A DNA stretch of 14,219 nt, from contig JAOTUX010000007.1 of NCBI GenBank assembly GCA_029863665.1, positions 1 to 14,219 on the forward strand, read 5' to 3'. Both the position numbers and the translations under genes were made by a program. The notes under the pieces were generated by a model. It saw nothing but the letters and a program-made list of their open reading frames with translations. It ran no database searches and was not told the DNA's origin. Of this stretch, positions 373-13,677 are shown piece after piece (the first letter of the stretch is position 1; every line of letters starts with the position of its first letter). The DNA is from Nitrosopumilus sp. (GTDB lineage Archaea; Thermoproteota; Nitrososphaeria; Nitrososphaerales; Nitrosopumilaceae).

Positions 373-530
373 ATTCTATTGTTGTTAAACGATGTACATG
401 TGCCAATAATTCTTTTACAAAAGATGTAGGTATTGGAGTCTGCATGAGATGTGGATTATCTTCATGCTCATGGTACGGATGTTTTGTTTTCGGATGTAAC
501 TGCTCTAGGGCAAAGGTGTTGAAAATATGA
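369..530 (+). CDS. Small Cys-rich (8 Cys in 53 aa) putative zinc-binding protein, absent from the ORF track
   Basis: Hand translation gives MNSIVVKRCTCANNSFTKDVGIGVCMRCGLSSCSWYGCFVFGCNCSRAKVLKI*. The ATG at 369-371 overlaps the upstream stop, and the TGA at 528-530 overlaps the primase ATG at 527 (ATGA at both ends). It exactly fills the gap between two co-directional genes. Confidence 0.5.
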   Translation: MNSIVVKRCTCANNSFTKDVGIGVCMRCGLSSCSWYGCFVFGCNCSRAKVLKI

Positions 531-2725
531 GTGACCATACCATTAAAGAAATCTACAAAAAGCAGGGAATCAACATTGTTCCAATTCCAAAAGGATCTGG
601 TAAAGCACTAAACATCAAGACAGGTTGGAGCAAATACCAGTATGAGATGTTTACAGGTGTAATACCAGATGACCAGGACTTTGCAGTAATTCTGGGAAGA
701 ATATCAGGCAATCTCATAGTACTAGATTTTGACAACTGTGATGATATCAACGAGATTAGTATGATGACACAAAATATTCTAAACAAAACTCTGGTGGTGC
801 GAACAGGGGACGGGTACCACGTCTACTTTAAGATAAATGAATTACCAGTACAGGCAAACACCTTTTTCTCAAAAGGAAAATACAGTATGGAGTTCAAAAG
901 TGATGGTGCGTATGTGGTTGGCGCATCATGCAACCACTATGACAAGGATGAGTCAGGACTGTACGTACTGACTGGCAAAAAATACACCATAATCTCAAAC
1001 ACCACATCAATCTATGATCTAAATGGTACTGCCACACAACTAATTGAGAAATTAAAAAATAATGGATGGATTCCAAAAAACCAAACAAATGGAAACGGGC
1101 ACCATACCATCATTCCAACCTCTGAGCTTGAAAAGGGAAACTGGTTATCTGGAGAGCGATACAACAATGGATTCAAGCTGGCACTAAGACGGTTCCATAT
1201 GGACTGGGAGTATGAAAAAATTCTAAACGAGGCAATAAAGATAAACAATTCATGCAATCCCCCACACAGCAATGTAGAGGTAGAGCGATGGGTAAATGAT
1301 GCGCATTCACAGTTTCAAAAAAACAGAGATGATCCTGAGCAAAAATACTTTAAACCTACAGATGATGAATCCAAGAAAGAAAAGAAAAACGCCAAGGCAC
1401 TAGTTGAGAACACATTACTTACAATCCAAAAGACTCACAATTTCAAGTGTCTGAGGGATTCAGATGAATTGTTGTGGTTTGATGGTAAAATTTACAGGCA
1501 AAATATTGCAGAGCCGCTAATTAAAGAAGAATGCGAGAAATGGATAGAGAACTGTAGCACATTTGATAGATGTGAAGTAATCAACAAGATAAAGGCGATA
1601 AACTATACTGACAGAGCTGAGTTTGACTCTGATCCTGACATTCAAACAGTTGAAAATTGTGTGTTAAATCTAAAGACACTAGAGACCATACAACACTCAC
1701 CATCAAATTTATCATGTGTAATGCTGCCAGTATCATACCATCCTATTGACATCAAGGTGAATACAGATTCCATTCTACAATATTTACATAATACACTGTT
1801 TCTAAAATATCTCACATCATGCTTTACCATAAATAGTAAGCTGGACCAAGAACAATTCTTTACAGTTTTAGAAATAATGGCATCATGTCTGATAAAAAAA
1901 CAGTTTGATAAAGCATTCATGTTTATTGGTTCAGGATCTAATGGTAAATCAGTACTACTTGATTATATAGAATCTCTTCTTGGTAAAGATAATGTCTCTA
2001 ACATTACAATCCATGACATTGAACTGGAACGATTCTCAAAGGCAGAATTATTTGGCAAGATGGCAAATGTATTTGCAGATATTGAAAGTAACGAGCTAAA
2101 AAAGACTGGAAACCTAAAGATTATAATTTCAGGTGACTCTATCACTGCTGAAAAGAAACACCGTCATCCATTCAAGTTCAAACCATACACAAAATTGATC
2201 TTCTCTGCAAATCGATTCCCATCAGTCCATGACCAATCTGATGGTTTCTTTAGAAGATTTGTAATTGTAAATTGGAAACGACAATTTACAGGAGAAGAAA
2301 AGAATCCAAATCTAAGAGAAGAACTAATTGCAGACAATGATGAGCAAAACAAGGTATTTTCTTTACTGGTTTTAATTGCAAGAAATCTTCGCATCCGCGG
2401 CAGATTCAAGCATGAGGACAACATTGAAGCACTACGCAAGCAATGGAATCAAAACAGTGATCCAATAATTCAGTTCATCAATGAGGTGGTAGTAGAGAAG
2501 GAAAATTCAGTGGTATCAAAGCGGGAGGTCTATTCCAGATATTGTGATTTTTGTATAGAACATGAAATTCCAGTTGTAACAATTAAGAGGTTTGGCATGA
2601 TCTTTGGCGAATATTACGAAACTGATCAAAGAAAAGATTCCAGTGGAATCAACAAAAAGTTCTGGATAGATATCCAGCTAAAGGTGCCTGTCATACAAAG
2701 GAGGTTAAAGGATTTTGATGCCTAG
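527..2725 (+). CDS. Bifunctional primase-polymerase (prim-pol) / D5-P4-type superfamily 3 helicase, replication protein of a mobile element
   Basis: The N-terminus carries the prim-pol signatures VLDFDN (DxD) and GDGYHVYF. The C-terminal half carries a P4/D5-type SF3 helicase: Walker A FIGSGSNGKS, Walker B-like NVFADIE, motif C IFSANRFP and arginine finger FFRRFVIVNW. A GGTG Shine-Dalgarno-like string sits 8-13 nt upstream. Confidence 0.9.
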   Translation: MSDHTIKEIYKKQGINIVPIPKGSGKALNIKTGWSKYQYEMFTGVIPDDQDFAVILGRISGNLIVLDFDNCDDINEISMMTQNILNKTLVVRTGDGYHVYFKINELPVQANTFFSKGKYSMEFKSDGAYVVGASCNHYDKDESGLYVLTGKKYTIISNTTSIYDLNGTATQLIEKLKNNGWIPKNQTNGNGHHTIIPTSELEKGNWLSGERYNNGFKLALRRFHMDWEYEKILNEAIKINNSCNPPHSNVEVERWVNDAHSQFQKNRDDPEQKYFKPTDDESKKEKKNAKALVENTLLTIQKTHNFKCLRDSDELLWFDGKIYRQNIAEPLIKEECEKWIENCSTFDRCEVINKIKAINYTDRAEFDSDPDIQTVENCVLNLKTLETIQHSPSNLSCVMLPVSYHPIDIKVNTDSILQYLHNTLFLKYLTSCFTINSKLDQEQFFTVLEIMASCLIKKQFDKAFMFIGSGSNGKSVLLDYIESLLGKDNVSNITIHDIELERFSKAELFGKMANVFADIESNELKKTGNLKIIISGDSITAEKKHRHPFKFKPYTKLIFSANRFPSVHDQSDGFFRRFVIVNWKRQFTGEEKNPNLREELIADNDEQNKVFSLLVLIARNLRIRGRFKHEDNIEALRKQWNQNSDPIIQFINEVVVEKENSVVSKREVYSRYCDFCIEHEIPVVTIKRFGMIFGEYYETDQRKDSSGINKKFWIDIQLKVPVIQRRLKDFDA

Positions 2726-2731
2726 TTATTT

Positions 2732-2821
2732 GGTAACTGATGTGCCAAACTTACTTTTCTACTATCTCGTCTTCTTTAATTATCTCCTTAGGAGAAAAAA
2801 AAGTAAGGGACATCGGTTACC
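2732..2821. repeat. About 90-nt imperfect inverted repeat (long hairpin or cruciform) immediately downstream of the primase-helicase gene
   Basis: The outer stem 2732-2743 (ggtaactgatgt) pairs with 2810-2821 (acatcggttacc): 12 bp with one G:T. Then cc 2745-2746 pairs with gg 2808-2809. The inner stem 2750-2758 (cttactttt) pairs with 2799-2807 (aaaagtaag). The 40-nt loop contains a mini-hairpin tctcc-tta-ggaga (2783-2795) and a T-rich run. Confidence 0.6.
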
Positions 2822-2877
2822 TTTTGCTTGCCCTAAAACTTGTCATATTAGACAAAAACAAGAGGTAATTTACTAAA

Positions 2878-3591
2878 TTGACTAGTCGCAAGCACTTTTC
2901 CTGGAAGGAATCCCTTATCCCGCAATCAAAAAGAGCAATACTGATAGAAAAAGACAACAAGCATTTCTACAAAACACCCCAAGGTCATACCTATCCTTCA
3001 GCAACTACCATGCTATCGCAAACCATGTCACCAGAGAAGAAAAACTCTTTGAAGGAATGGAGAAAAAGAGAAACAAAAGCAGATGAGATAACAAAACGTG
3101 CAACAGATATTGGCACATTTGTCCATAAACTAGCCGAAGATTATCTTAACAACAGGTATGATGATACAAGAAACCAAAATAGCATTGAAACACAACATTC
3201 TCAAATAATATGGAAACATTTCAGACAACTGCAACCATTTCTAAACAAGATGAATAACATCTGTGAAACTGAGATTCCGTTATACCATGACTATCTTATG
3301 TTTGGAGGAACGTCCGACTGCATTGCAGAGTATGGTGGAACCCTTAGCATAATTGATTTCAAAACAAGCAGAGCAGAAAAATATGAAGGATACATTGAAG
3401 ATTATTTTCTGCAGGCAACATTGTATTCAATGATGTACCACAATCAAACTGGAATCGCAATCTCACAGATTGTAATTCTAATATCTGGTGAAGATGGAAC
3501 ATCCAGAGAATTTGTAAAAAACATTGATGACTATGTAGACTTGTTGTTTCAAAGAATTTCTCAGTTTAATATTTTGGAGGCTAAAAATTGA
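2878..3591 (+). CDS. PD-(D/E)XK superfamily nuclease (RecB/lambda-exonuclease-like fold; not Cas4)
   Basis: Motifs in order are GGTSDCIAEY (D), LSIIDFKTS (D/ExK) and YFLQATLYSMMY (QxxxY). The N-terminal YPSATTML string is common in phage or plasmid exonucleases. There is no C-terminal 4-Cys cluster. Start is TTG with AGAGGT about 12 nt upstream. Confidence 0.75.
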   Translation: MTSRKHFSWKESLIPQSKRAILIEKDNKHFYKTPQGHTYPSATTMLSQTMSPEKKNSLKEWRKRETKADEITKRATDIGTFVHKLAEDYLNNRYDDTRNQNSIETQHSQIIWKHFRQLQPFLNKMNNICETEIPLYHDYLMFGGTSDCIAEYGGTLSIIDFKTSRAEKYEGYIEDYFLQATLYSMMYHNQTGIAISQIVILISGEDGTSREFVKNIDDYVDLLFQRISQFNILEAKN

Positions 3592-3860
3592 GAGAACCAC
3601 TCCTTGAAAGGTCTTTTGTTGTTACTTGTAAAAATAGACCACCAAAAAATGGCAAAAGTTGCACAGGATTGCTTGCAGGAGGCGCTTGTCGTGGAATTTG
3701 TACAAGATATGCAATCAAGACAAAGTGGGGACAAAAAAAATATGAATTAGGATTGAGGTTTTGCAGTTATTGTAGGGTGTGGTTTGATGATGAGTGTAAA
3801 ATTTGTTGCATATGCTGTAAAAAACGAGTTCGCCACAAAAGACGGGACAAACAAAAATGA
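3588..3860 (+). CDS. Cys-rich zinc-finger protein with a basic C-terminal tail (probable nucleic-acid binding)
   Basis: The 90-aa protein has several Cys pairs (CRGIC, CSYC, CKICCICC) and a tail KKRVRHKRRDKQK. Its TTG start overlaps the upstream stop and its TGA overlaps the downstream ATG (3857-3860), so it appears translationally coupled within the operon. Confidence 0.55.
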   Translation: MREPLLERSFVVTCKNRPPKNGKSCTGLLAGGACRGICTRYAIKTKWGQKKYELGLRFCSYCRVWFDDECKICCICCKKRVRHKRRDKQK

Positions 3861-4324
3861 GTTCAAGATCAGTACAGCATCTTCATTCGATTAATGTTCA
3901 AGATGAGTATGGTACTCCCAAGGAATTATTTCAAAATATCTGCAAAAAACATGACATTTATCCACAAATTGATATCTGTGCTAGTCATACAAACCATGTC
4001 TTACCAAACTATATCACAAAAGAGCAGAATTGTTTTGATCATTCCATAACAAAAGATTTTTTCATGAATCCTCCATATTCGCAAGTCTCCGAGTTTATGG
4101 AATTTGCATATTTGCAACACAAAACAAACAACGTGTCTTGCTTGATATTGACTTATTCCAAGACAGACACCATTTGGTGGCACAAATTTGTGGAAGGCAA
4201 ATCTAAAGTTCACTTTATCAAGGGCAGAATCAGGTTTTTAGATGAATGGGGTATTCCAACTAGCAATGTGGCACCGTATCCCAGCTGCTGGATTGTCTTT
4301 AGAAAAAATAGACATGAAAAGTGA
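3857..4324 (+). CDS. Phage-type DNA N6-adenine methyltransferase (small Dam family), apparently orphan
   Basis: YGTPKELF near the N-terminus, QIDICAS, catalytic FFMNPPYS (NPPY), then TIWWHKFV and FIKGRIRF. This is the order and spacing characteristic of the short phage Dam family. The protein is 155 aa. Confidence 0.85.
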   Translation: MSSRSVQHLHSINVQDEYGTPKELFQNICKKHDIYPQIDICASHTNHVLPNYITKEQNCFDHSITKDFFMNPPYSQVSEFMEFAYLQHKTNNVSCLILTYSKTDTIWWHKFVEGKSKVHFIKGRIRFLDEWGIPTSNVAPYPSCWIVFRKNRHEK

Positions 4325-4430
4325 GTGTGAACGAGTTTTCTACAAAGAGTAAAAATGGCATCCCCCCGCTTTAGGCAGGAAAACATGTTATGGTCGTAAA
4401 GCTTTAGAATGTCTAATCTAAGAAAATATA

Positions 4431-5141
4431 GTGAGATATCCAAAAATAGATTTTAAGAAAATTGATCAATTCAAGGAAATTACTAATGACGATGAAGCTT
4501 TTAGTCTAATCCGAGAAGAATTATCATTAATTATGTCTAAGTTAGAAAAGGAAACAGAGCCAGTAATTGAAACGCAATTAAAAAACTACATAATAATCAG
4601 ACTGGTAACTCTATTAGAAGTATTTTTTCAAAATCAGGTTGTAAATTTAATTGACAATTATAAAATAAAACATAGTGATTTGTTTGTAAATGACGAAATA
4701 TCGATTTCAATTTCTAGCTTAGATAAATTACAAAATGCAAGCAAGGGCAAAATTATTGCAACCAGCTTGTCCTTTCATTCTTCGTCAGACATAGATTTTG
4801 CTTTTTCAAAACTTCTAAATGTTGAATTTTTGACTCAAATTAAGAAATTTAATGTGAATGAAGAAATACCCAATCCTTTCGCTCAAAATTGGGATAAATT
4901 TTTTGAGATTTACCACGAACGACATAAAACGGTGCATTCTATCTACTTATGCAAAAAATATAGTAAAAAACAAATTCGACAAATAATAGATGCAGCAGAG
5001 TGGTTAACCGTTTTATCAAATATTGTGATAATGGGAAAAATTCTTGAAACTATGGAGCTTTCGTTCAAAAACATACAACCAAAATTATATCGATGGTTGA
5101 CTGCCAATTTTTTTAGAAAACCAAAAAAAAAATCTAATTAG
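4431..5141 (+). CDS. HEPN-domain protein (RiboL-PSP/MAE_28990-like), putative RNase toxin or abortive-infection component
   Basis: A canonical Rx4H motif, ERHKTVH (R164..H169, nt 4920-4937), lies near the C-terminus. It is preceded by a helix LKNYIIIRLVTLLEVFFQNQV and a segment IIATSLSFHSSSDIDFAFSKLL, which resemble RiboL-PSP-type HEPN families. The start is GTG; the first in-frame ATG is at 4533. Confidence 0.5.
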   Translation: MRYPKIDFKKIDQFKEITNDDEAFSLIREELSLIMSKLEKETEPVIETQLKNYIIIRLVTLLEVFFQNQVVNLIDNYKIKHSDLFVNDEISISISSLDKLQNASKGKIIATSLSFHSSSDIDFAFSKLLNVEFLTQIKKFNVNEEIPNPFAQNWDKFFEIYHERHKTVHSIYLCKKYSKKQIRQIIDAAEWLTVLSNIVIMGKILETMELSFKNIQPKLYRWLTANFFRKPKKKSN

Positions 5142-5347
5142 TTACAATTCACTTTCAGGCTCATAACTCTCTTCATCAACCAATCAATCTCCTCATTTGA
5201 AATCAAATTAGAAACAATATCTGCAGGAATTGCAGCAGAATCACACTTTGTTTTATCATTGAGTGATTTTAATTCCGAAAACCAGTTTCTCTTCTTATCT
5301 GAGTTCAGATTAACCTTCTTCTGATATGATTCAATTTTACACATCAA
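5138..5347 (-). CDS. Small hypothetical protein (69 aa), convergent with and overlapping the stop of the HEPN gene
   Basis: ATG-initiated ORF. Its coding strand is purine-rich like the other genes here. Its stop TAA (complement of 5138-5140) overlaps the TAG at 5139-5141 of the + strand gene. The pattern KKVNLNS / DKKRNWFSELKSL / IPADIVSNLISNEE is compatible with a beta-alpha-alpha (RHH-like) fold, but this is unverified. Confidence 0.4.
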   Translation of the reverse strand: MMCKIESYQKKVNLNSDKKRNWFSELKSLNDKTKCDSAAIPADIVSNLISNEEIDWLMKRVMSLKVNCN

Positions 5348-5440
5348 GAAAATAAATCGTCATACTACAAAGACTAATTGTCACACTTATCAAGAATTAA
5401 ATTTTTAATTTTTACAGATATTTTATACCCATGCTTCTTC

Positions 5441-5992
5441 CTAATTTTGTTCTGTATATTCTAGAGTCTGCTTTGAAATCCCAAATCTCTTGATATCCTT
5501 TGGTTTCAATTCCAATATTCTTGATTTAAGTTTTTGAATTTCTGCGTCCCAATCCATCATTTCATCTCTTATTGTTAACTGGCTTTGCATTATCATTACT
5601 TTAGGATTAGACATTACTTTTTCAAGAACTTCTATTATGTTTTCAATAAAAAAGCAATTATGTCTCCAACTGGCATACGGTGGATCATCATGTTTTTCAA
5701 ATTTGAATAATATGCCCTGAATTTTACCATTATCGTTATTATCTTCATGTAATCCTGCCCCATGAGCCAAGTTTCTTACTATTGCAGGAATGTTTAATGT
5801 ATAGTAGTTCTTTTTCTTCTGATCATTCATGTGAAGTTCTTTTAAGACATGTTTGATTAAATTTGAATAACCCTTACCCATGAATTTTTTGTCTAATCCA
5901 CTGTTAATGCTCTTAAACATATTTTCTACATAAAATAATGCCACTGTAAGGAAAGAAATTCTATTCATCAAATCCCAATTATATATTTCCAA
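5441..5992 (-). CDS. Hypothetical protein with a HEPN-like RNLAHG string; function unknown
   Basis: 183-aa ORF with a TTG start. VRNLAHGAG (R73-H77, nt 5762-5776) resembles the R-N-x3-H-G core of HEPN/Abi_C families but is one residue shorter (Rx3H). The C-terminal KRFGISKQTLEY looks HTH-like. The frame stays open and coding-like up to 6088 with no ATG/GTG/TTG. Confidence 0.45.
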   Translation of the reverse strand: MEIYNWDLMNRISFLTVALFYVENMFKSINSGLDKKFMGKGYSNLIKHVLKELHMNDQKKKNYYTLNIPAIVRNLAHGAGLHEDNNDNGKIQGILFKFEKHDDPPYASWRHNCFFIENIIEVLEKVMSNPKVMIMQSQLTIRDEMMDWDAEIQKLKSRILELKPKDIKRFGISKQTLEYTEQN

Positions 5993-6103
5993 AGGATTTT
6001 CCTGTTTTTTGAACTCTAGTCTTTTGTTGTAAATTGACTCGATAAAATCTCTGTAAGGATATGTTGGAGAATCGTTATAACAAATTTTTTATCTAAAACT
6101 ATA

Positions 6104-6691
6104 ATGAGTAACAAAACTCAATACCAATTAACACAAGAACAAGCAAAAAAAGCCATCAAAATGTGCCTAGACAATGCGTGGTCATATCTTGAAGATGCTG
6201 ACATGTATATCGCAAACAACAGAACAGAGCATATAGCAATCCCAATTGCATTTGCAATGGAAGAAATCGGAAAGGCGAAAATCATTTATGATAAAATAGA
6301 GAAAAATAATTCAAAAATTCTTTTGTCAAATGATAAAGATGGTATCTACGATCATACAACGAAAATAAAGAAAACAATTTCATTAATTGAACTAGATTTT
6401 GATGATGATGTAGGAGAAGCAGTGATGATAGAACAATTAACTTTTGGTGGCTCTTTTGAATTTGAATATTTTATTGATCAATCAAAAATTTCAGATAAAA
6501 TAAAACAAGAAAATGAATTAAAAGATATAGGAAAACAAGGACATAAGATACGACTTGCAAGTTCATTTGTTGGCTTTGATGCTACCACTAGTGAGCCTAA
6601 AATAAAAAAATCTACAGTAGACTTGACTAAACTCATCAAAGCATTATACCAAATCATAACTGGATATCCCTCTTCATTTAACACCTATTGA
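6104..6691 (+). CDS. AbiV-family (HEPN_AbiV-like) abortive-infection protein homolog
   Basis: The N-terminal LDNAWSYLEDADMYIANNRTEHIAIPIAFAMEEIGKAKIIY matches the hallmark AbiV pattern (nA..ll.dA..L.....A..l...A.EE.GKa). A DHTTKIK string follows. Its 195 aa is close to lactococcal AbiV (about 200 aa). This is motif-level recognition only. Confidence 0.55.
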   Translation: MSNKTQYQLTQEQAKKAIKMCLDNAWSYLEDADMYIANNRTEHIAIPIAFAMEEIGKAKIIYDKIEKNNSKILLSNDKDGIYDHTTKIKKTISLIELDFDDDVGEAVMIEQLTFGGSFEFEYFIDQSKISDKIKQENELKDIGKQGHKIRLASSFVGFDATTSEPKIKKSTVDLTKLIKALYQIITGYPSSFNTY

Positions 6692-6847
6692 CTCTAAAAG
6701 GTAGAAAAATTATTACAACATTAAACTATTAGGTTATGGTATATCTATAAAACAAAATAACAAACAAACCATTTTCTTGATATAGCAATAATTATGAAAT
6801 TATTTTTTCGCTAATAACCTTATTAATCAATTACATGGGGCCAAATT

Positions 6848-7570
6848 ATGAGACAAAATTTAATCTCTTTACAATGTTACTGTGCAAAACCAGAAATTGT
6901 TTTTCTCCCCTTTGAAAACGAAACGGTCTGTAAAATATGCGGTGTGGTTCTACAAAACAATGAATCATCATACAACATAGAGCAAACAGTACCATATGAG
7001 ATGCTCTGCAAGACAAACCTCAATTTACACCAAAGAAAGCAAGTCGGTGGGGATCCACGTGATGAACAAATGATAACATCTACAAAATTTCATACAGAGT
7101 CAGATTCCCTCTTGGCATTCTCTGATGTCTGCCGCAAACTATCCCTTACTAGTGCCATCTCAGAGGACTCTTGGAAATCATTTTGCCATGACACCACAAA
7201 TCTAACAAAGGCAAAAAAGATGTGTCATGCAATATACCGGACTCTACAAAACAATGCAATCCCATATGATGAAAATATAGTTCAAAATATTATCTGTTGC
7301 AGCCTTGGTGTAAAAAACGCATCAGGCCCTAGAGGCATACAATTCAAGACTGATTCCTCTGCATTTACCTCAAAGGAGGTAAAGATGAGATTCTACCTGA
7401 ATTTATCAATTAAACAGGCACAAAATCAGTATGCTATATCTGATGTATCGGCACTGCAGAAAAATTCCAGAAACTATATGAATATCCTGATAGAGTCATT
7501 TCCAAACTCAGATTACAAGACCTTGGCAAAAAAGGCAACAGAGATGGCAAGACTGAGGTGTCTGAATTAA
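6848..7570 (+). CDS. Short TFB/TFIIB-like transcription factor (zinc ribbon plus apparently one cyclin-like repeat)
   Basis: The N-terminal ribbon CYC-x15-CKICGVVL (nt 6875-6952) resembles the TFB Cx2C-x15-17-Cx2CG(l/v)V(l/i) ribbon. Later, LSLTSAISEDSWKSF and KKMCHAIYRTLQNNAIPYDENIVQNI resemble the first cyclin repeat. At 240 aa it is shorter than cellular TFB (about 300 aa). Confidence 0.55.
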   Translation: MRQNLISLQCYCAKPEIVFLPFENETVCKICGVVLQNNESSYNIEQTVPYEMLCKTNLNLHQRKQVGGDPRDEQMITSTKFHTESDSLLAFSDVCRKLSLTSAISEDSWKSFCHDTTNLTKAKKMCHAIYRTLQNNAIPYDENIVQNIICCSLGVKNASGPRGIQFKTDSSAFTSKEVKMRFYLNLSIKQAQNQYAISDVSALQKNSRNYMNILIESFPNSDYKTLAKKATEMARLRCLN

Positions 7571-8676
7571 ACATCTCAACTGAAAATATGGTTCAGACCA
7601 TTCAGCCTGATTCAATTGTGTTGCTTTCAGAAAACATTGGAATTGTGATGGAGACAAATATCTTAAAGTACTCCTCAATGAAAACGCAAGACCTTCCAAT
7701 AGTTAGACTAGGAAAAGTAAATGACAAATTGTATGCCATAAATCACTATGATGTAGTACTTGGATGTAAACAGTCAAAAAATAATGCATTATGCACCATT
7801 GAAGAGTGTAAAAATATCTCAGATATTATAGTACAGCATTTTTGTGATGTACTATCTAGTGATATACTCAACACACCACTAGTTTACAATCTAGTTGATT
7901 CACTCCAAGAGAAATTAAAAACAGACAAGATTACAGTTCTAAAAATTCTTGGAATAGACAAACTCCAGTATTGTAGGTTGTTGATGGCAACTAACCATAT
8001 CTCAGAAGCTGCAATCTCAAAGCTAGAAGAACTGGTAAATGAACTCTCAAAGAGAAAAGGACTAACTGCAATTCAGGCAAGCACTCCAATTTATGTCCTA
8101 GAAAAGATATCTCGAATCACTGATGAATCACAACAAATTCAATTGATACACTTTATTGCGTCTGATCTAAGACCAAAAAGTGATTCAAGATTTTTCTGGA
8201 TGACACCAGAACAAATTGACTCCATAACTCAAATGATAAGACAAAATGCAACTCGTACAGAATATAGAGACGAGTCAACTGTTGCACAATTTGTCTTATC
8301 TGAAAATCTTGGAGAAAAAGAATCATCATCAAACAAAAACAAAAAACCAAAACCATCAAAAAAGACTAGAGAAATTCTTGAGGCCATTCCAAATATACTA
8401 GTCATTCCAGATGAGAAAGGAAACCCAGACATTTTAGTTGATAAAAAAACTGGTACAGTATCAAAAATAGATACATCATCAAACAAAAAAATCATAAAGA
8501 CAAGTCACATCCCATCAAAGAAGCTCTACTCCATACCATTTGATGTTGTAAATTTTCTTGAAATGGAGGGACAAATACGACATAAAAACATCACAGGTAC
8601 TGACAACCTCAAATTGTTCACAGATTCCCAGAAAGATTCTACACAAAGATACACAATATTTTGGAATGTATCATAG
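7558..8676 (+). CDS. Degenerate ParB-like N-terminal domain plus HTH protein with a lysine-rich low-complexity C-terminal region
   Basis: IQPDSIVLLSEN...LPIVRLGKVNDKLYAINHYDVVLGCKQ follows the ParB N-domain layout, but the GxxR box is replaced by NHYDVVLG. TVLKILGIDKLQYCRLLMATNHISEAAISKLEEL is a ParB-type HTH. The GTG start overlaps the upstream gene by 13 nt; an alternative ATG lies at 7588. Confidence 0.4.
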   Translation: MSELNISTENMVQTIQPDSIVLLSENIGIVMETNILKYSSMKTQDLPIVRLGKVNDKLYAINHYDVVLGCKQSKNNALCTIEECKNISDIIVQHFCDVLSSDILNTPLVYNLVDSLQEKLKTDKITVLKILGIDKLQYCRLLMATNHISEAAISKLEELVNELSKRKGLTAIQASTPIYVLEKISRITDESQQIQLIHFIASDLRPKSDSRFFWMTPEQIDSITQMIRQNATRTEYRDESTVAQFVLSENLGEKESSSNKNKKPKPSKKTREILEAIPNILVIPDEKGNPDILVDKKTGTVSKIDTSSNKKIIKTSHIPSKKLYSIPFDVVNFLEMEGQIRHKNITGTDNLKLFTDSQKDSTQRYTIFWNVS

Positions 8677-8679
8677 AAC

Positions 8680-9306
8680 TTGCAAAATAATAGAGATCTA
8701 TTATGGTATAGATGCAACATAAAGAGAAACTCTACAGGCTCAAAAATTCTTGAATCATCATATGTTTCAGGATTTTCTCTTTTAGAGATTTCAAAAAAGA
8801 CCAAAAAACAGTACAGATATACCAAAAAAATAGTTCTAGAGCTGAAATACTCTGGATATCTTGAATCAGAAAGCAAAGGGCGATATTCCATAACTCAGAA
8901 GGGTAGGTGGTTTGTCATATGTCAGAGACTTGGATTGTCTTTTTTGTCATTGTGTTTATTGGCTGAAGTTTATCACAGGGTCAATTCCAATCCAGAATTC
9001 TTTTACCAGTTTTCATCATTTAGGCAGTGTTATGAGACAGGATATGATGAGAATTTTACATATATGGCAATATATCGCAGACAAAACATTTCAAAATCCC
9101 TCAAACATTTGACATCAAGAAATCTAGTGTATGCATTAGGGGATTTTATCAAAATGACAAATACAATGATTGAATTTCTAAAAAAGTATCACCGAGATCT
9201 TGAATCGTTATTTTTGTGGTGCAGTGATATGTATGAAAAATGTATTTGCAATACAATTGAAAATAATAATTTTAATGCCAGTGGTATCTTGCAAGGATCC
9301 AATTAG
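8680..9306 (+). CDS. Winged helix-turn-helix DNA-binding protein (possibly two wHTH units)
   Basis: GFSLLEISKKTKKQYRYTKKIVLELKYSGYLESESKGRYSITQKGRWF is a classic wHTH with a wing hairpin. A second weaker unit lies around ISKSLKHLTSRNLVYALGDFIKMT. The TTG start is 3 nt after the upstream stop, and there is no in-frame ATG before the domain. Confidence 0.45.
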   Translation: MQNNRDLLWYRCNIKRNSTGSKILESSYVSGFSLLEISKKTKKQYRYTKKIVLELKYSGYLESESKGRYSITQKGRWFVICQRLGLSFLSLCLLAEVYHRVNSNPEFFYQFSSFRQCYETGYDENFTYMAIYRRQNISKSLKHLTSRNLVYALGDFIKMTNTMIEFLKKYHRDLESLFLWCSDMYEKCICNTIENNNFNASGILQGSN

Positions 9307-9383
9307 AGTGTCAAAAAATGCTACTTTGATTGGGTCTTTTGGTTTTATTCTATATGTTATGAGTGGTTGTGGAGTTTTTCCAG

Positions 9384-10037
9384 ATGAGAATAGTTTTGAT
9401 ACTAGTAATGTTTGGAGTAGCATCTATCTTTGACTATAAATCAAGAAAAGTTCCTGATGTTATCTGGATTGCTGGTATCAGTACAGGTGGAGTGATGTAT
9501 GTAATTGACTATGAAACATTTTCTGTATACCATGGAGTGAGCATTGTAACCTCTTGCTTTTTTGGTTTTATTTTGTACAGATTTAGGTTTGTCGGGATGG
9601 CAGACCTGTTTGGCATCATATCTGTTAGTGTGATACTACCAGTTCATTATACATTTGTAATGGTTCCAATATTAGGAACTATTTTGGCGCTGATTCTGGT
9701 CGTATCTACAATCATCTTGTACAATGTGACACTCAATGCAATTGACATGATGTCAAAAAGAAGACTATTTGGAGGATTTGCAGGGGAGCCGCCGTACAGA
9801 AAGTTCCTCGCAGTTTTCTTTATTCACAGAAAGAGAGGATACGAGAGATTTGTCATTTCAGCTGAGAGTCAATACCCGGCAATCCCAAAAAACAGGTCAT
9901 TTGTCCTGATATCTAGGAGCAAGGAAATTTCCCAGGTGGTGGGACTCGTGCAGAATGTGCCGCCATTTGTAGTGTTTATGATGATTGGAATGATCTTACT
10001 GTTGTTGCCTGAAATTCTGAATATAGTATTTTCTTAA
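9384..10037 (+). CDS. A24-family aspartic prepilin/preflagellin (archaellin) peptidase, polytopic membrane protein
   Basis: The first catalytic Asp lies in ASIFDYKSRKVPD and the second in a GxGD-like FVGMADLF about 57 residues later. There are several hydrophobic helices. I prefer ATG 9384 (GGAG about 10 nt upstream) over the tracked GTG at 9363. Confidence 0.75.
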   Translation: MRIVLILVMFGVASIFDYKSRKVPDVIWIAGISTGGVMYVIDYETFSVYHGVSIVTSCFFGFILYRFRFVGMADLFGIISVSVILPVHYTFVMVPILGTILALILVVSTIILYNVTLNAIDMMSKRRLFGGFAGEPPYRKFLAVFFIHRKRGYERFVISAESQYPAIPKNRSFVLISRSKEISQVVGLVQNVPPFVVFMMIGMILLLLPEILNIVFS

Positions 10038-10096
10038 TTTAGACTATAAAATTAATTTATAATTGATCCGAGATATTTTGTAATGTCATGACCGGC

Positions 10097-10133
10097 AGGA
10101 TTTGAAGGTTTTTGGTGATTGTTTTGGTACCAA
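10097..10133. repeat. Direct repeat copy 1 (37 bp) upstream of the copper oxidase gene; contains the 10-bp palindrome ttggtaccaa
   Basis: aggatttgaaggtttttggtgattgttttggtaccaa matches 13641-13677 at 33 of 37 positions. The palindrome is at 10124-10133. Confidence 0.7.
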
Positions 10134-10503: not shown

Positions 10504-13500
10504 ATGACCATACGAGATTTTTACCTAAAGATTGAACAAATTTCAAGTTATAGTCCAGTACACCCTGTTGACAAAGAGCCTCCGGGGGTGGAGTACAGTC
10601 GAGACTGTATGTATGGTGAAGGGCATGAGAATGGAAAAATACCACAAGCCGAAGTAGATGCCAGAACCCTTGACGCAATTGTATACCGGGAATACCTGGA
10701 TAAGGATTTTCTTATTCCAAAACCGGATAAAATGGTAGAATCGGATATCAATGAACCTGTGTTTGACAGTAGGATTGGAACTGTATTGTATGCTAGTCCT
10801 GGACAGACATTAAACATTCATGTTTTAAATGCAGATAACAAACCCCATTCCTTTCACATACATGGACTTGAATTTGGGATAGATTCAGACGGTGCTTGGC
10901 CCTTTGGTACACAAAATGAGGATGGCTCTAGATCAGATAGGATCTGTCCAGGAGAAAAATGGACTTACATCTTTAATGTCAGAGAGGAGATGATAGGGGT
11001 TTGGCCGTTCCATGATCATTTTGGGATGGTAGGAAAAAATATTGATAGAGGTTTGTTTGGAGGACTGATTGTTCAGCCAAAAGGCCAGATCACAATTCCG
11101 GAACTTGAAGTTTTTCCAAGAGAGTTTGAAGATTTGCTAGACAGGTATGTAAGAATCAAGGATATAATTGGTGAAGTTCCACAGCCTAGACCCAGACCAG
11201 ATCCTCCTCCCATATTTGAGAAAGACAGAGTATACATACGCGATCAAGTGGAATTTTTGAAAGAATGGTTGGGTGTTTTTATTGGAAAGCCACCAAAAAA
11301 GAAAAGAAAAACACTTCACGTTCCATTGTTTTTCCACAAAATGAAGAGTCATCAAAGCAAACCTGTTTTTGACACAGGAGACATAGAGGAATTAGGCGGA
11401 GAACACGAGGTTATTTTTAATAATCAGGGAGCCTTTGATTATTTTTGCATATACCATCCCATGATGGAAGGAAAAATCAATGTTGTCCCAGGAGGATCCC
11501 TTCTAGTTACAGTCAACATATTGGATAACCCTCAAATGGGATTTTATCCTCCAATAGTGGATATTGGAATAGGCGGAACTGTGAAATGGGTTAATCAAAG
11601 TCAGTTCCATCATACGGCTACTTCAAAGGAAGGTGCATCATTGGCCACCCATTGTTTTAATGGCAGAGGCTTTGTTGGAAACTCTCCTACCATTGTAGCT
11701 GAAAGTGGCCAGAAAATAAAATGGTATGTATTTAATTTGGATGTTGGTCACGAATGGCACAATTTTCATACACACTCACAAAGATGGAAATTAGGAAATG
11801 AAAACATTGATGTTAGAAGTTTAGGCCCTGCAGAATCATTTGCAGTTGAGACTACCGCACCGCCAGTCCTATTATTTCCAGATAAAGAGATGAATGATCT
11901 GCAAGAATGCAAAGTAAAGCCCAAAGATGCAAAGATATACAGACTCAAAGGAGATTTTGTATTTCACTGCCATGTTCACCATCATATGATGAATGGTATG
12001 GTAGGTTTGGTGCGCTCGTTCCAAAATGTTTGGCTAACTCCGGATATGATTACAAAGTTAAAAAAGACAAGAGGGTTTCCTCTTGATGATGGTACAAATA
12101 ATTGTCCAACACTTCCAGAAAGCTGTTCGAATTTAGATCTTGGGAGATGGGAAGAGATACCAGGTGATCCTGAAGTAACATTAATGCATTCTGTATTGTT
12201 ACCTAAAACACAAAAGGTCTTGTATTGGGGATATACAAGAGCAGATCAATCCAGGCTTTGGGATTATGGAACCAACACCTACTCTTCGCCAGTAAATCAA
12301 CCGGCTAGTTTACCCGGTGAAAATGAAAACACCTCCAATCTTTGGTCTGCAGAACATTCTTTTCTTGATGATACAGAGGGCACTGCGTTGATTCATGGAG
12401 GTTTAACTCAAGGACCAAATGGCACTCCAACTGAATCATTTCTTTTCAGTCCCTCAACACTTCAATGGAGCAAGACTAATTCAACAACGAATCCTAGATT
12501 TTATTCTACAACCATTACATTGGCTGATGGAAAATTAATTACCCTCTATGGTTCTAGTTCAAAATCCATCGAGGTGTATACGCCTGGAGCAGGTTGGGGA
12601 TCTCCAATCAATTTACCCTACCTTAACTACCGATATTATCCGTGGACATTTCTATTACCTGATGGCAGACTCTTTATTGCAGGGCCTGAATCTCCTACTC
12701 ACAGATTTGATTGGCAAAATCCAATAGTGGATCCTAACAACACTTGGAATACAAATGAGGGTACAAGAGATCAGTCTAGTCAAAACGGAACAGCAGTGAT
12801 ATTTCCGTTAAGACCGCCAAATTATGAACCAAGAGTTATGATTATGGGTGGAAGAAACCCAAATTTAATAAAATCATCTGAGACAATAGATCTTTCCTTG
12901 GGTGCCCCATCTTGGTCAAATCTGTCAGATATGAATGAGGCAAGAGGGAATCTCACTTCAGTATTGCTTCCAGATGGCAGAGTATTTGTTGCAGGCGGAA
13001 TACCAGGTGCACCAGGTGTGAACGATGGAGGTCCATCTGAGATATTTGATCCTCAAAATCCGAATGATGGATGGCAATTGGGACCAATAATGAAGTATCC
13101 GAGAAATTACCACTCTTCAATGATTTTATTGCCAGATGGTAGTATTCTAGCAGGAGGAGATCCTAGACAAGCAGGAAATCCAACTCCTCATGAAAGATAT
13201 TATCCTGGTTACTTTAACAAAACTAGACCACAAATTACAAACATTCCAAACACTACTGTAAACTATGGAAATAATTTTGATGTGCAAACTCCAAATTCAC
13301 CAGACATTACAGAAGTAGTTTTGATGTATCCTGGTGCTGTAACTCATAGCTTTAACATGACTCAGAGAATAATAGAATGTGAGATTGTAAATAATGTTGG
13401 AGGGATTGTACGGGTAAAAGCCCCAACAAATGGCAATATTGCACCACCCGGACACTATCTTGTTTTTATTCTTGATGCAAACAGAATACCTTCTACTGGT

Positions 13501-13524
13501 GAATGGATACGTCTTAGAAATTAG
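10504..13524 (+). CDS. Fusion protein: two-domain multicopper oxidase (ceruloplasmin-like cupredoxin pair) plus blue-copper motifs plus galactose/glyoxal-oxidase-like beta-propeller with DUF1929-type C-terminal domain
   Basis: The MCO ligand motifs are HSFHIHG (aa 115-121), WPFHDH (167-172), HNFHTH (419-424) and HCHVHHHMMNGM (488-499, HCH-x3-H-x4-M). A type 1 Cu loop FCIYHPMMEG sits at aa 314-323. The galactose-oxidase-like strings are PRFYSTTITLADGK (664-677), NYHSSMILLPDGSILAGG (868-885), AVTHSFNMTQR (945-955) and PPGHYLVFILDANRIPSTGEWIRL (981-1004). An in-frame TAA lies 18 nt upstream of the ATG, and there is no signal peptide. Confidence 0.9.
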   Translation: MTIRDFYLKIEQISSYSPVHPVDKEPPGVEYSRDCMYGEGHENGKIPQAEVDARTLDAIVYREYLDKDFLIPKPDKMVESDINEPVFDSRIGTVLYASPGQTLNIHVLNADNKPHSFHIHGLEFGIDSDGAWPFGTQNEDGSRSDRICPGEKWTYIFNVREEMIGVWPFHDHFGMVGKNIDRGLFGGLIVQPKGQITIPELEVFPREFEDLLDRYVRIKDIIGEVPQPRPRPDPPPIFEKDRVYIRDQVEFLKEWLGVFIGKPPKKKRKTLHVPLFFHKMKSHQSKPVFDTGDIEELGGEHEVIFNNQGAFDYFCIYHPMMEGKINVVPGGSLLVTVNILDNPQMGFYPPIVDIGIGGTVKWVNQSQFHHTATSKEGASLATHCFNGRGFVGNSPTIVAESGQKIKWYVFNLDVGHEWHNFHTHSQRWKLGNENIDVRSLGPAESFAVETTAPPVLLFPDKEMNDLQECKVKPKDAKIYRLKGDFVFHCHVHHHMMNGMVGLVRSFQNVWLTPDMITKLKKTRGFPLDDGTNNCPTLPESCSNLDLGRWEEIPGDPEVTLMHSVLLPKTQKVLYWGYTRADQSRLWDYGTNTYSSPVNQPASLPGENENTSNLWSAEHSFLDDTEGTALIHGGLTQGPNGTPTESFLFSPSTLQWSKTNSTTNPRFYSTTITLADGKLITLYGSSSKSIEVYTPGAGWGSPINLPYLNYRYYPWTFLLPDGRLFIAGPESPTHRFDWQNPIVDPNNTWNTNEGTRDQSSQNGTAVIFPLRPPNYEPRVMIMGGRNPNLIKSSETIDLSLGAPSWSNLSDMNEARGNLTSVLLPDGRVFVAGGIPGAPGVNDGGPSEIFDPQNPNDGWQLGPIMKYPRNYHSSMILLPDGSILAGGDPRQAGNPTPHERYYPGYFNKTRPQITNIPNTTVNYGNNFDVQTPNSPDITEVVLMYPGAVTHSFNMTQRIIECEIVNNVGGIVRVKAPTNGNIAPPGHYLVFILDANRIPSTGEWIRLRN

Positions 13525-13640
13525 ACCCGAAATGCATCATTACAGAATTGAATCGTTTGGTATGATATTAATCGTGATTCAGGTTAAATTCCATAATAGG
13601 GAATTGCATTCTTAGTTTAGTTCTCTAATTCAAGACTGAT

Positions 13641-13677
13641 AGAATTTGAAGGTTATGGGTGATTATTTTGGTACCAA
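13641..13677. repeat. Direct repeat copy 2 (37 bp) downstream of the copper oxidase gene; overlaps a perfect 20-bp palindrome
   Basis: agaatttgaaggttatgggtgattattttggtaccaa matches 10097-10133 at 33 of 37 positions. ttattttggtaccaaaataa (13663-13682) is a perfect palindrome centred on GGTACC. Confidence 0.7.

Follow-up and report, generated by a model that had tools for sequence, protein, structure and literature searches.

What enzyme results when two kinds of copper oxidase are joined in one chain, and in which part of the cell could it act? This question is raised by the window (the whole stretch of DNA analysed, 14,219 nt), which is an entire 14.2-kb contig of Nitrosopumilus sp. and carries an open reading frame (ORF) that fuses a multicopper oxidase (MCO) half to a galactose oxidase (GO)-like half. 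The product is recorded at NCBI as 'DUF1929 domain-containing protein [Nitrosopumilus sp.]'. The answer favoured here, tentatively and with a likelihood somewhat short of even, is that the protein may be a self-contained six-copper oxidase, in which a GO-like site would feed electrons through two type 1 coppers to a trinuclear cluster.

Integrity of the fusion gene

The initial annotation of this DNA placed both halves in a single chain and noted that a frameshift or stop found on resequencing could split them into two ordinary genes. The ORF (Table 1) was intact. The same 1006-aa protein, 100% identical, was called on four more contigs (ENA, JGI and Logan assemblies), and more than 100 homologues aligned across 100% of the fusion protein with 50-74% identity. 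Because the identical protein occurs in independent assemblies and the homologues are full-length, a frameshift or assembly artefact was ruled out, and the single chain stands. An in-frame TAA was confirmed 18 nt 5' of the ATG, as annotated. The motifs quoted in the initial annotation, including AIVYREYLDKDF (residues 58-69), GLFGGLIVQPKG (residues 183-194) and the four MCO ligand motifs, were all found in their annotated places.

The MCO half

Pfam analysis recognised the two cupredoxin domains of the MCO half with Cu-oxidase_3 (50.6 bits, cut-off 21) and Cu-oxidase_2 (38.1 bits, cut-off 20.4). Domain 1 gives the trinuclear-cluster ligands H118, H120, H170 and H172, which lie in the motifs H115-S-F-H118-I-H120-G and H170-D171-H172; D171 sits at the type 1 Cys position. 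Domain 2 carries the motifs H419-x2-H422-x-H424 and H488-C489-H490-x3-H494-x4-M499, which provide four further cluster ligands (H422, H424, H488 and H490) and a type 1 site (H419, C489, H494 and M499). Over the 120 homologues used for conservation throughout, the eight cluster His residues were 99-100% conserved, and the type 1 ligands of domain 2 were invariant. The first strand of domain 2 is probably formed by residues 331-340.

A phmmer search of the PDB matched residues 71-208 to ceruloplasmin (E 1e-17), followed by factor V and two-domain laccases. Residues 1-545 modelled alone gave a mean predicted local distance difference test score (pLDDT) of 92.4 and a predicted template modelling score (pTM) of 0.90. 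Foldseek analysis of the N-terminal half against the PDB put ceruloplasmin and factor V/VIII on top (query-normalised TM-score, TMq, ~0.45), and the whole chains of the two-domain laccases SLAC and Ssl1 matched it with a target-normalised TM-score (TMt) of 0.70-0.73 (E ~1e-16). No three-domain MCO was present within the top 50 Foldseek PDB matches of this half. These matches bear out the annotated two-domain type of MCO with ceruloplasmin-like sequence.

In the model, the two MCO domains are arranged like the protomer of a two-domain MCO. Since that geometry forms a trinuclear cluster only between subunits, the protein would be expected to be a homotrimer with the cluster between neighbouring subunits. 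A monomer resembling a three-domain MCO, with the inserted module described below as its middle domain, was not favoured; the fold fits two-domain protomers and ceruloplasmin domain pairs, not CueO, CotA or laccases.

The inserted blue-copper module

The MCO domains are separated by about 170 residues, comprising two helices, a disordered Pro-rich loop (PQPRPRPDPPP at about 226-236, with pLDDT below 50 at residues 222-233 of the AlphaFold2 (AF2) model) and an amicyanin-like module. The initial annotation had placed a Pro-rich linker and an extra blue-copper motif after domain 2; both exist, but they are positioned between domains 1 and 2. Pfam Copper-bind (PF00127) matched residues 294-327 with 22.1 bits (cut-off 21.2). 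The extra type 1 motif was found as the loop C315-x2-H318-x2-M321, which was invariant, as was H370; H272 and H278 were nearly invariant. The insert is read as a second, additional type 1 copper site formed by C315, H318 and M321 with either H370 or H278.

Alignment with amicyanin showed that residues 300-326 correspond to amicyanin 78-104 (the C-terminal Cys-His-Met loop) and residues 343-387 to amicyanin 27-70 (the N-terminal strands), with H370 equivalent to the ligand His53. The order thus appears permuted, because the amicyanin N-terminal strands and the His53 equivalent come after the Cys loop. When the two pieces were re-ordered in silico, they gave a single colinear alignment to plastocyanin. 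The insert may therefore be a cupredoxin that is nested or circularly permuted.

Conserved Cys, His and Met residues were also seen outside the assigned copper sites (C35, H41, C148, H369, H383-C384, C534, C541 and M561-H562). These may form more metal sites, or disulfides if the protein is exported.

The GO-like half and its lost cysteine

The C-terminal half matched both GO and DUF1929 profiles, in agreement with the annotated GO-type propeller and E-set tail. PF09118 was found with E 5e-26 and 91.3 bits (cut-off 25), and Glyoxal_oxid_N covered residues 613-783 with 36.2 bits, slightly under its cut-off of 37.5; kelch repeats were also reported by Pfam. The nearest solved relatives of residues ~625-1004 were galactose oxidases and GlxA (PDB phmmer, E 1e-24). 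The full-length model (pLDDT 90, pTM 0.60) matched AA5 oxidases at E 1e-34 to 1e-27 in Foldseek, with GO and GlxA at 1e-34 to 1e-31. For the NCBIfam GlxA equivalog NF052501, whose cut-off is 800 bits, the score was 133.7.

Alignments with hhalign and MAFFT showed that Y667, Y869-H870 and H948 are the equivalents of the GO copper ligands Tyr272, Tyr495-His496 and His581, and all four were 100% conserved. The column of GO Cys228 was occupied by S615 (codon TCT, 12346-12348), within the motif W614-S615-x-x-H618. No Cys was present at residues 611-620 in any of the 120 close homologues, and 72 of the 74 genome loci covering the Cys228 region were of this Ser type ([W/H]-S). Around the GO-like copper site, W614, S615, H618, Y712 and W714 were invariant family-wide. 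The stacking Trp290 of GO was not kept: hhalign placed Ser in that column (GSSS versus GSWSGG of GO). W614 or W714 might fill the stacking role instead.

The PDB phmmer alignments miss the Cys region, and hhalign and MAFFT were used there. These alignments included the Fusarium GO sequence, and the Cys column was independently confirmed by bacterial GO-like proteins. These standalone relatives were retrieved by searching 1.84 billion representatives; the nearest of them read F-C-[SGA]-[GA]-H at the Ser615 position in MAFFT.

The sequence rules out a canonical radical copper oxidase in the C-terminal half, the Tyr-Cys cofactor being impossible without the Cys. The initial annotation had proposed a radical copper oxidase producing hydrogen peroxide (H2O2); this part has to be given up, and H2O2 production is not to be assumed, because the cofactor Cys is Ser here and across the family. 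H618 was considered as a replacement cross-link partner and rejected, as the same His occurs in Cys-type standalone proteins (F-C-S-G-H) and some members have Gln.

Absence of an export signal

The fusion protein has neither a hydrophobic N-terminal segment (within the first 50 residues, the maximum 10-residue hydropathy was 0.36) nor a twin-arginine motif, and nothing along its whole length resembles a transmembrane (TM) segment. The annotated lack of a signal is therefore borne out for the window protein by hydropathy, and it extends to the family: the 111 complete members were likewise free of signal peptides, twin-arginine motifs and TM segments. Their median maximum hydropathy over the same region was 0.75; only one member reached 2.0 or more, and there the segment was a β-strand of an N-terminal domain. 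Among 41 standalone Cys-type relatives the median was 2.52, with 31 at 2.0 or above. The fusion enzyme most likely stays in the cytoplasm.

An extra N-terminal domain of about 100 residues, weakly transthyretin-like, was present in 86 of the 120 best homologues, while 28, the window protein among them, begin directly with the MCO domain. This domain (P0003, P0009-P0120) is β-rich, with the consensus G.RVE.WD.D...DD.LG...T...G.F...F and a weak match to Pfam TTR-52. Homologue P0120 has a different, unrelated N-terminal extension.

The proposed electron chain and its rivals

In the six-copper reading, each chain would hold one mononuclear copper in the propeller (Y667, Y869, H870 and H948), one type 1 copper in the insert, another in MCO domain 2, and a trinuclear cluster, six coppers in all. 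The cluster would be built from the four His of domain 1 and the four His of domain 2 of a neighbouring subunit. A small substrate, by analogy perhaps an alcohol or aldehyde, would be oxidised at the GO-like copper, from which single electrons would pass to the type 1 copper of the insert, then to that of domain 2 and on to the trinuclear cluster. There O2 would be reduced to water, with no H2O2 released and no stable Tyr-Cys radical needed. Ser could be tolerated at the Cys228 position because the MCO, as an electron sink, would remove the need to store a second oxidising equivalent on a Tyr-Cys radical; and since no H2O2 would be made, the enzyme could work unexported in the cytoplasm. The eight cluster His, both type 1 sets and the four GO ligands are invariant or nearly so. 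Such co-conservation at 50-74% identity argues that all the copper sites are under selection together.

Several points weigh against this scheme. The pTM of the full-length model was only 0.60, so that it is uncertain how the GO-like and MCO halves are placed towards each other. Even without a cross-link, Tyr667 might give rise to a radical. CotA and MnxG are MCOs that lack signals yet reach spores, so that the absence of a signal is not proof of a cytoplasmic location; and to our knowledge, prokaryotic cytoplasmic copper enzymes are almost unheard of. A wider proposal is rather unlikely to hold in full: that these proteins are a new copper-oxidase class, cytoplasmic, with a Cys-less GO site wired through a permuted blue-copper relay to a laccase cluster, so that a two-electron oxidation of the substrate would be coupled to the four-electron reduction of O2 to water, and that it has spread horizontally into nitrifiers and into a cassette slot of Nitrosopumilus.

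Other readings share parts of this evidence. Both halves have complete sets of metal ligands, and GO and GlxA are the nearest solved relatives of the C-terminal half, as would be expected if the chain held two autonomous enzymes, a GO-like radical oxidase turning O2 into H2O2 and an MCO that reduces O2 to water with phenols or metal ions. However, the cofactor Cys is Ser across the family, and loss of this Cys severely impairs GO activity. Two autonomous enzymes would also leave unexplained the invariant extra type 1 module and the strict co-inheritance of the fusion over more than 15 phyla, and H2O2 released in the cytoplasm would be harmful; this is the least probable of the alternatives. 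The MCO might instead be a built-in activator, whose relay takes one electron from the resting Cu(II)-tyrosine and so makes or maintains the tyrosyl radical, after which the GO-like site turns over with O2 alone. Peroxidases such as horseradish peroxidase (HRP) or DtpA do likewise for GO and GlxA, and a Cys-type sister clade combines a complete radical-oxidase site with the same MCO and relay. GlxA maturation is reported to depend on a partner oxidoreductase (PMC4736821), which also speaks for an activator. A four-electron O2-reducing cluster would nevertheless be a costly device for occasional one-electron activation. Moreover, the potential of an un-crosslinked tyrosyl radical is far above the normal reach of Met-ligated type 1 coppers, which counts against activation in the Ser-type proteins, and the activator was considered improbable.

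A similarly low likelihood was given to a plain laccase or metallo-oxidase acting on Cu(I), Fe(II), Mn(II) or phenols, with the GO-like half reduced to non-catalytic binding, scaffolding, or copper binding or storage. In its favour, nothing is missing from the MCO part, the propeller lacks both the Tyr-Cys cofactor and the stacking Trp290, and propellers are often binding platforms. Against this, the four GO ligands are invariant together with W614, S615, H618, Y712 and W714, a pattern that points to a working metal site and not to a relic. The cytoplasmic location was questioned by a further alternative, in which the protein acts outside the cytoplasm on extracellular substrates after non-classical export. 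It might leave by hitch-hiking with a partner or in vesicles, through lysis, or in the course of surface-layer assembly. Enzymes of both parent classes usually act outside the cytoplasm, signal peptides are found on the nearest standalone relatives, and the transthyretin-like domain could target or anchor the protein. This was judged unlikely, though a little less so than the other alternatives, given that the 111 complete members lack any signal, twin-arginine motif or TM segment, that no conserved neighbour gene offers itself as an export partner, and that the window form is without even the transthyretin-like domain.

Distribution of the family

The initial annotation held this to be an architecture not recognised as characterised. 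It is indeed uncharacterised: no paper on an MCO/GO-like fusion came up in full-text literature searches, and one lead (PMC8218464) contained nothing relevant. It is not rare, since at least 170 species-level genomes encode it and its protein clusters number more than 900. The database labels of the relatives are generic ('galactose oxidase-like', 'DUF1929 domain-containing protein').

In the distribution scan, one genome was taken per species, and 80 loci were kept from the 170 species with a relative. These 80 loci included Acidobacteriota, Gemmatimonadota, Actinomycetota, Bacteroidota, Planctomycetota, Verrucomicrobiota, Nitrospirota and Myxococcota, as well as Burkholderiales and other Proteobacteria. 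Among nitrifiers, the fusion was present in Nitrosomonas Nm51, Nm90 and Nm166 and in Nitrospira; the archaeal carriers were a few ammonia-oxidising archaea, including a Nitrososphaera metagenome-assembled genome (MAG). The closest homologue of the window protein (74% identity) lies on a contig with archaeal-looking neighbour genes (HxlR- and TrmB-type regulators), and the next closest, at about 59%, include one from a bacterial MAG (Phycisphaerae, L005).

The Cys-type sister clade, with about 34% identity, consisted of fusions from Anaeromyxobacter sp. RBG_16_69_14 (L083) and Acidobacteria gp4 (L084) and a metagenomic fragment (P0262). These have the same module order, the amicyanin-like insert, all ligands and no signal peptide. 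The fusion event is older than the Cys loss, because the sister clade has the same architecture yet retains the Cys. In P0262, the linker between the MCO and the propeller contains a long His/Glu-rich repeat, (EH/PEH)n, which looks metal-binding.

ORF calling and all-against-all BLASTP over 84 loci revealed no conserved neighbour gene beyond generic paralogue families, and this lack fits a self-sufficient enzyme. The Nitrosomonas sp. Nm166 homologue is directly followed downstream by genes for a peptidase S8 and for a protein that combines PatG_D with PatG_C domains, as well as by five small ORFs of 72-112 aa. A peptide-modifying role suggested by these neighbours was rejected, since the block recurs only in copies of that locus (L002, L003 and L048).

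Comparison with known copper enzymes and significance

The fusion resembles the two-domain type B MCOs (SLAC and Ssl1 of Streptomyces; PDB 3cg8, 4m3h) in its two cupredoxin domains with HxH + HxH and HxxHxH + HCHx3Hx4M, and, as in SLAC, the type 1 copper of the MCO is in domain 2. SLAC is a secreted protein of about 300 aa with a Tat signal. Unlike SLAC, with which it shares about 14% identity, the fusion has an additional type 1 motif within an inter-domain insert of ~170 residues, a 460-aa GO-like module and no signal. Ceruloplasmin and the A domains of factor V/VIII are the closest sequence relatives of domains 1 and 2 and were the top Foldseek matches of the N-terminal half. These are secreted eukaryotic proteins with six domains in a single chain and an intramolecular trinuclear cluster, whereas the fusion has one domain pair and would thus need to form a trimer.

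The AA5 copper radical oxidases (GO, glyoxal oxidase and Streptomyces GlxA) share with the fusion the seven-bladed propeller, the E-set domain and the four copper ligands, but the fusion differs in having Ser for Cys228, no Trp290, no signal and an attached MCO. The Cys-type sister fusions read Y-P/S-x-M/L-H where the Ser type reads Y-P-W; such fusions are rare and, like the Ser type, uncharacterised. Among the PDB matches to the insert were copper nitrite reductases that carry a tethered cupredoxin (6hbe, 9cck). These are trimeric two-cupredoxin enzymes with a built-in type 1 relay, an arrangement that the fusion would share, and they serve as a precedent for such a relay joined by fusion; unlike the fusion, they have a type 2 nitrite site and no propeller, and the extra cupredoxin is terminal, not inserted or permuted.

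What is newly recognised here is that signal-less, putatively six-copper fusions make up a large and uncharacterised family, whose GO-type site lacks the Cys and whose blue-copper module is inserted and apparently permuted. GO-type enzymes are the textbook case of a protein-derived radical cofactor. If the proposed electron chain is correct, the family would offer an alternative route to two-electron chemistry at one copper, and an alcohol or aldehyde oxidase that makes no H2O2 for biocatalysis. It would then also be among the very few cytoplasmic cuproenzymes of prokaryotes. A six-copper enzyme without an export signal would challenge the rule that keeps prokaryotic cuproenzymes outside the cytoplasm, and it would raise the question of metallation. 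These predictions are directly testable, since members occur in cultured, tractable hosts (Variovorax paradoxus, Nitrosomonas Nm51/Nm90/Nm166 and Piscinibacter caeni).

Genomic context in the window

The coordinates of the features are collected in Table 1.

Table 1. Features of the window and of related loci, with residues of the fusion protein in brackets.
Feature	Position	Strand	Evidence or remark
MCO/GO-like fusion ORF	10504..13524	+	complete, ATG start, 1006 aa; NCBI MDH3203157.1
MCO cupredoxin domain 1, ceruloplasmin-like	10504..11103 (~1-200)	+	Pfam Cu-oxidase_3 91-193; ceruloplasmin match; invariant His
Linker: two helices, Pro-rich loop, KKKRK stretch	11104..11307 (~201-268)	+	AF2 secondary structure
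Amicyanin-like type 1 copper module	11308..11637 (~269-378)	+	Pfam Copper-bind, NCBIfam amicyanin, PDB alignments, conservation
MCO cupredoxin domain 2	11638..12039 (~379-512)	+	Pfam Cu-oxidase_2; ceruloplasmin domain 6 alignment; invariant ligands
Helix and inter-module linker, conserved C534 and C541	12040..12138 (513-545)	+	conservation, AF2 model
GO-like seven-bladed kelch propeller	12139..13218 (~546-905)	+	Pfam, PDB phmmer, Foldseek, hhalign/MAFFT
GO-like E-set (DUF1929) domain	13225..13512 (908-1003)	+	PF09118, carries H948
Extra conserved Cys/His/Met codons	10606-10626, 10945-10947, 11608-11613, 11650-11655, 12103-12126, 12184-12189		invariant or near-invariant
Direct repeat, upstream copy, 48 nt	10086..10133	+	bounds oxidase cassette
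Direct repeat, downstream copy	13630..13677	+	40/48 positions identical to upstream copy
D5-type primase-helicase	527-2725		phrog_864, 1e-70
PD-(D/E)XK exonuclease	2878-3591		phrog_298, 1e-64
Dam methyltransferase	3857-4324		
AbiV-type HEPN protein	6104-6691		
TFIIB zinc-ribbon protein	6848-7570		
Peptidase_A24 (prepilin/preflagellin peptidase-like)	9363-10037		weak match, membrane protein; adjoins cassette upstream
Cys-type sister fusions	L083 9980-12832; L084 4192-6993; P0262		retain F-C-A-G-[HQ]
Nm166 downstream block	L002 11553-15140 (= L048, L003)		resembles ribosomal-peptide gene cluster
Repeat copies in L086	~5400-5444, 6563-6603		
Repeat copies in L089, three	54-97, 860-917, 2276-2319		separate plastocyanin-like gene from other cargo

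A pair of 48-nt direct repeats encloses the oxidase gene together with its leader, which is AT-rich and 370 nt long; the conserved repeat sequence of ~45 nt is GACCGGCAGGATTTGAAGGTTTTTGGTGATTATTTTGGTACCAA. No match to the 48-nt pair arose in 200 shuffles. The repeat core was found on five metagenome contigs (L086, L087, L088, L089 and L090), of which L086 and L090 share synteny with the window on either side (72% and 84% identity). In these two, only 1.1 kb lies between the repeat copies, and the cargo of L086 is a Kunitz/Kazal/DUF4377 protein. Since syntenic contigs bear different cargo between the repeats, the oxidase gene occupies a variable, repeat-bounded single-gene cassette slot. Neither an integron attC-like hairpin nor a tRNA fragment or known RNA accounts for the repeat: its fold was no better than that of shuffled sequence, and no tRNA or Rfam match was found. 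It may be a recombination site or a regulatory element.

The GC content at third codon positions (GC3) of the oxidase gene was 0.29, the same as in its neighbours, and its higher overall GC was due to codon positions 1 and 2. This match rejects a recent transfer from a GC-rich donor, so that the gene is not a very recent import of that kind. MCO genes are already known as auxiliary cargo of thaumarchaeal integrated elements (PMC6563490). The fusion gene is accessory cassette cargo and no core nitrification gene, and it is not to be taken as the missing hydroxylamine-oxidising enzyme.

A gene block of mobile-element type extends over 527-9306 of the window and has several ORFs without matches besides those listed in Table 1. 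No integrase was found on the contig, and a pattern scan gave no viral relatives of the D5-type primase. A virus-borne auxiliary gene was rejected as an explanation of the oxidase, a relative being present on only one IMG/VR contig. The Peptidase_A24-like gene next to the cassette was conserved in the syntenic contig L086 (4660-5349).

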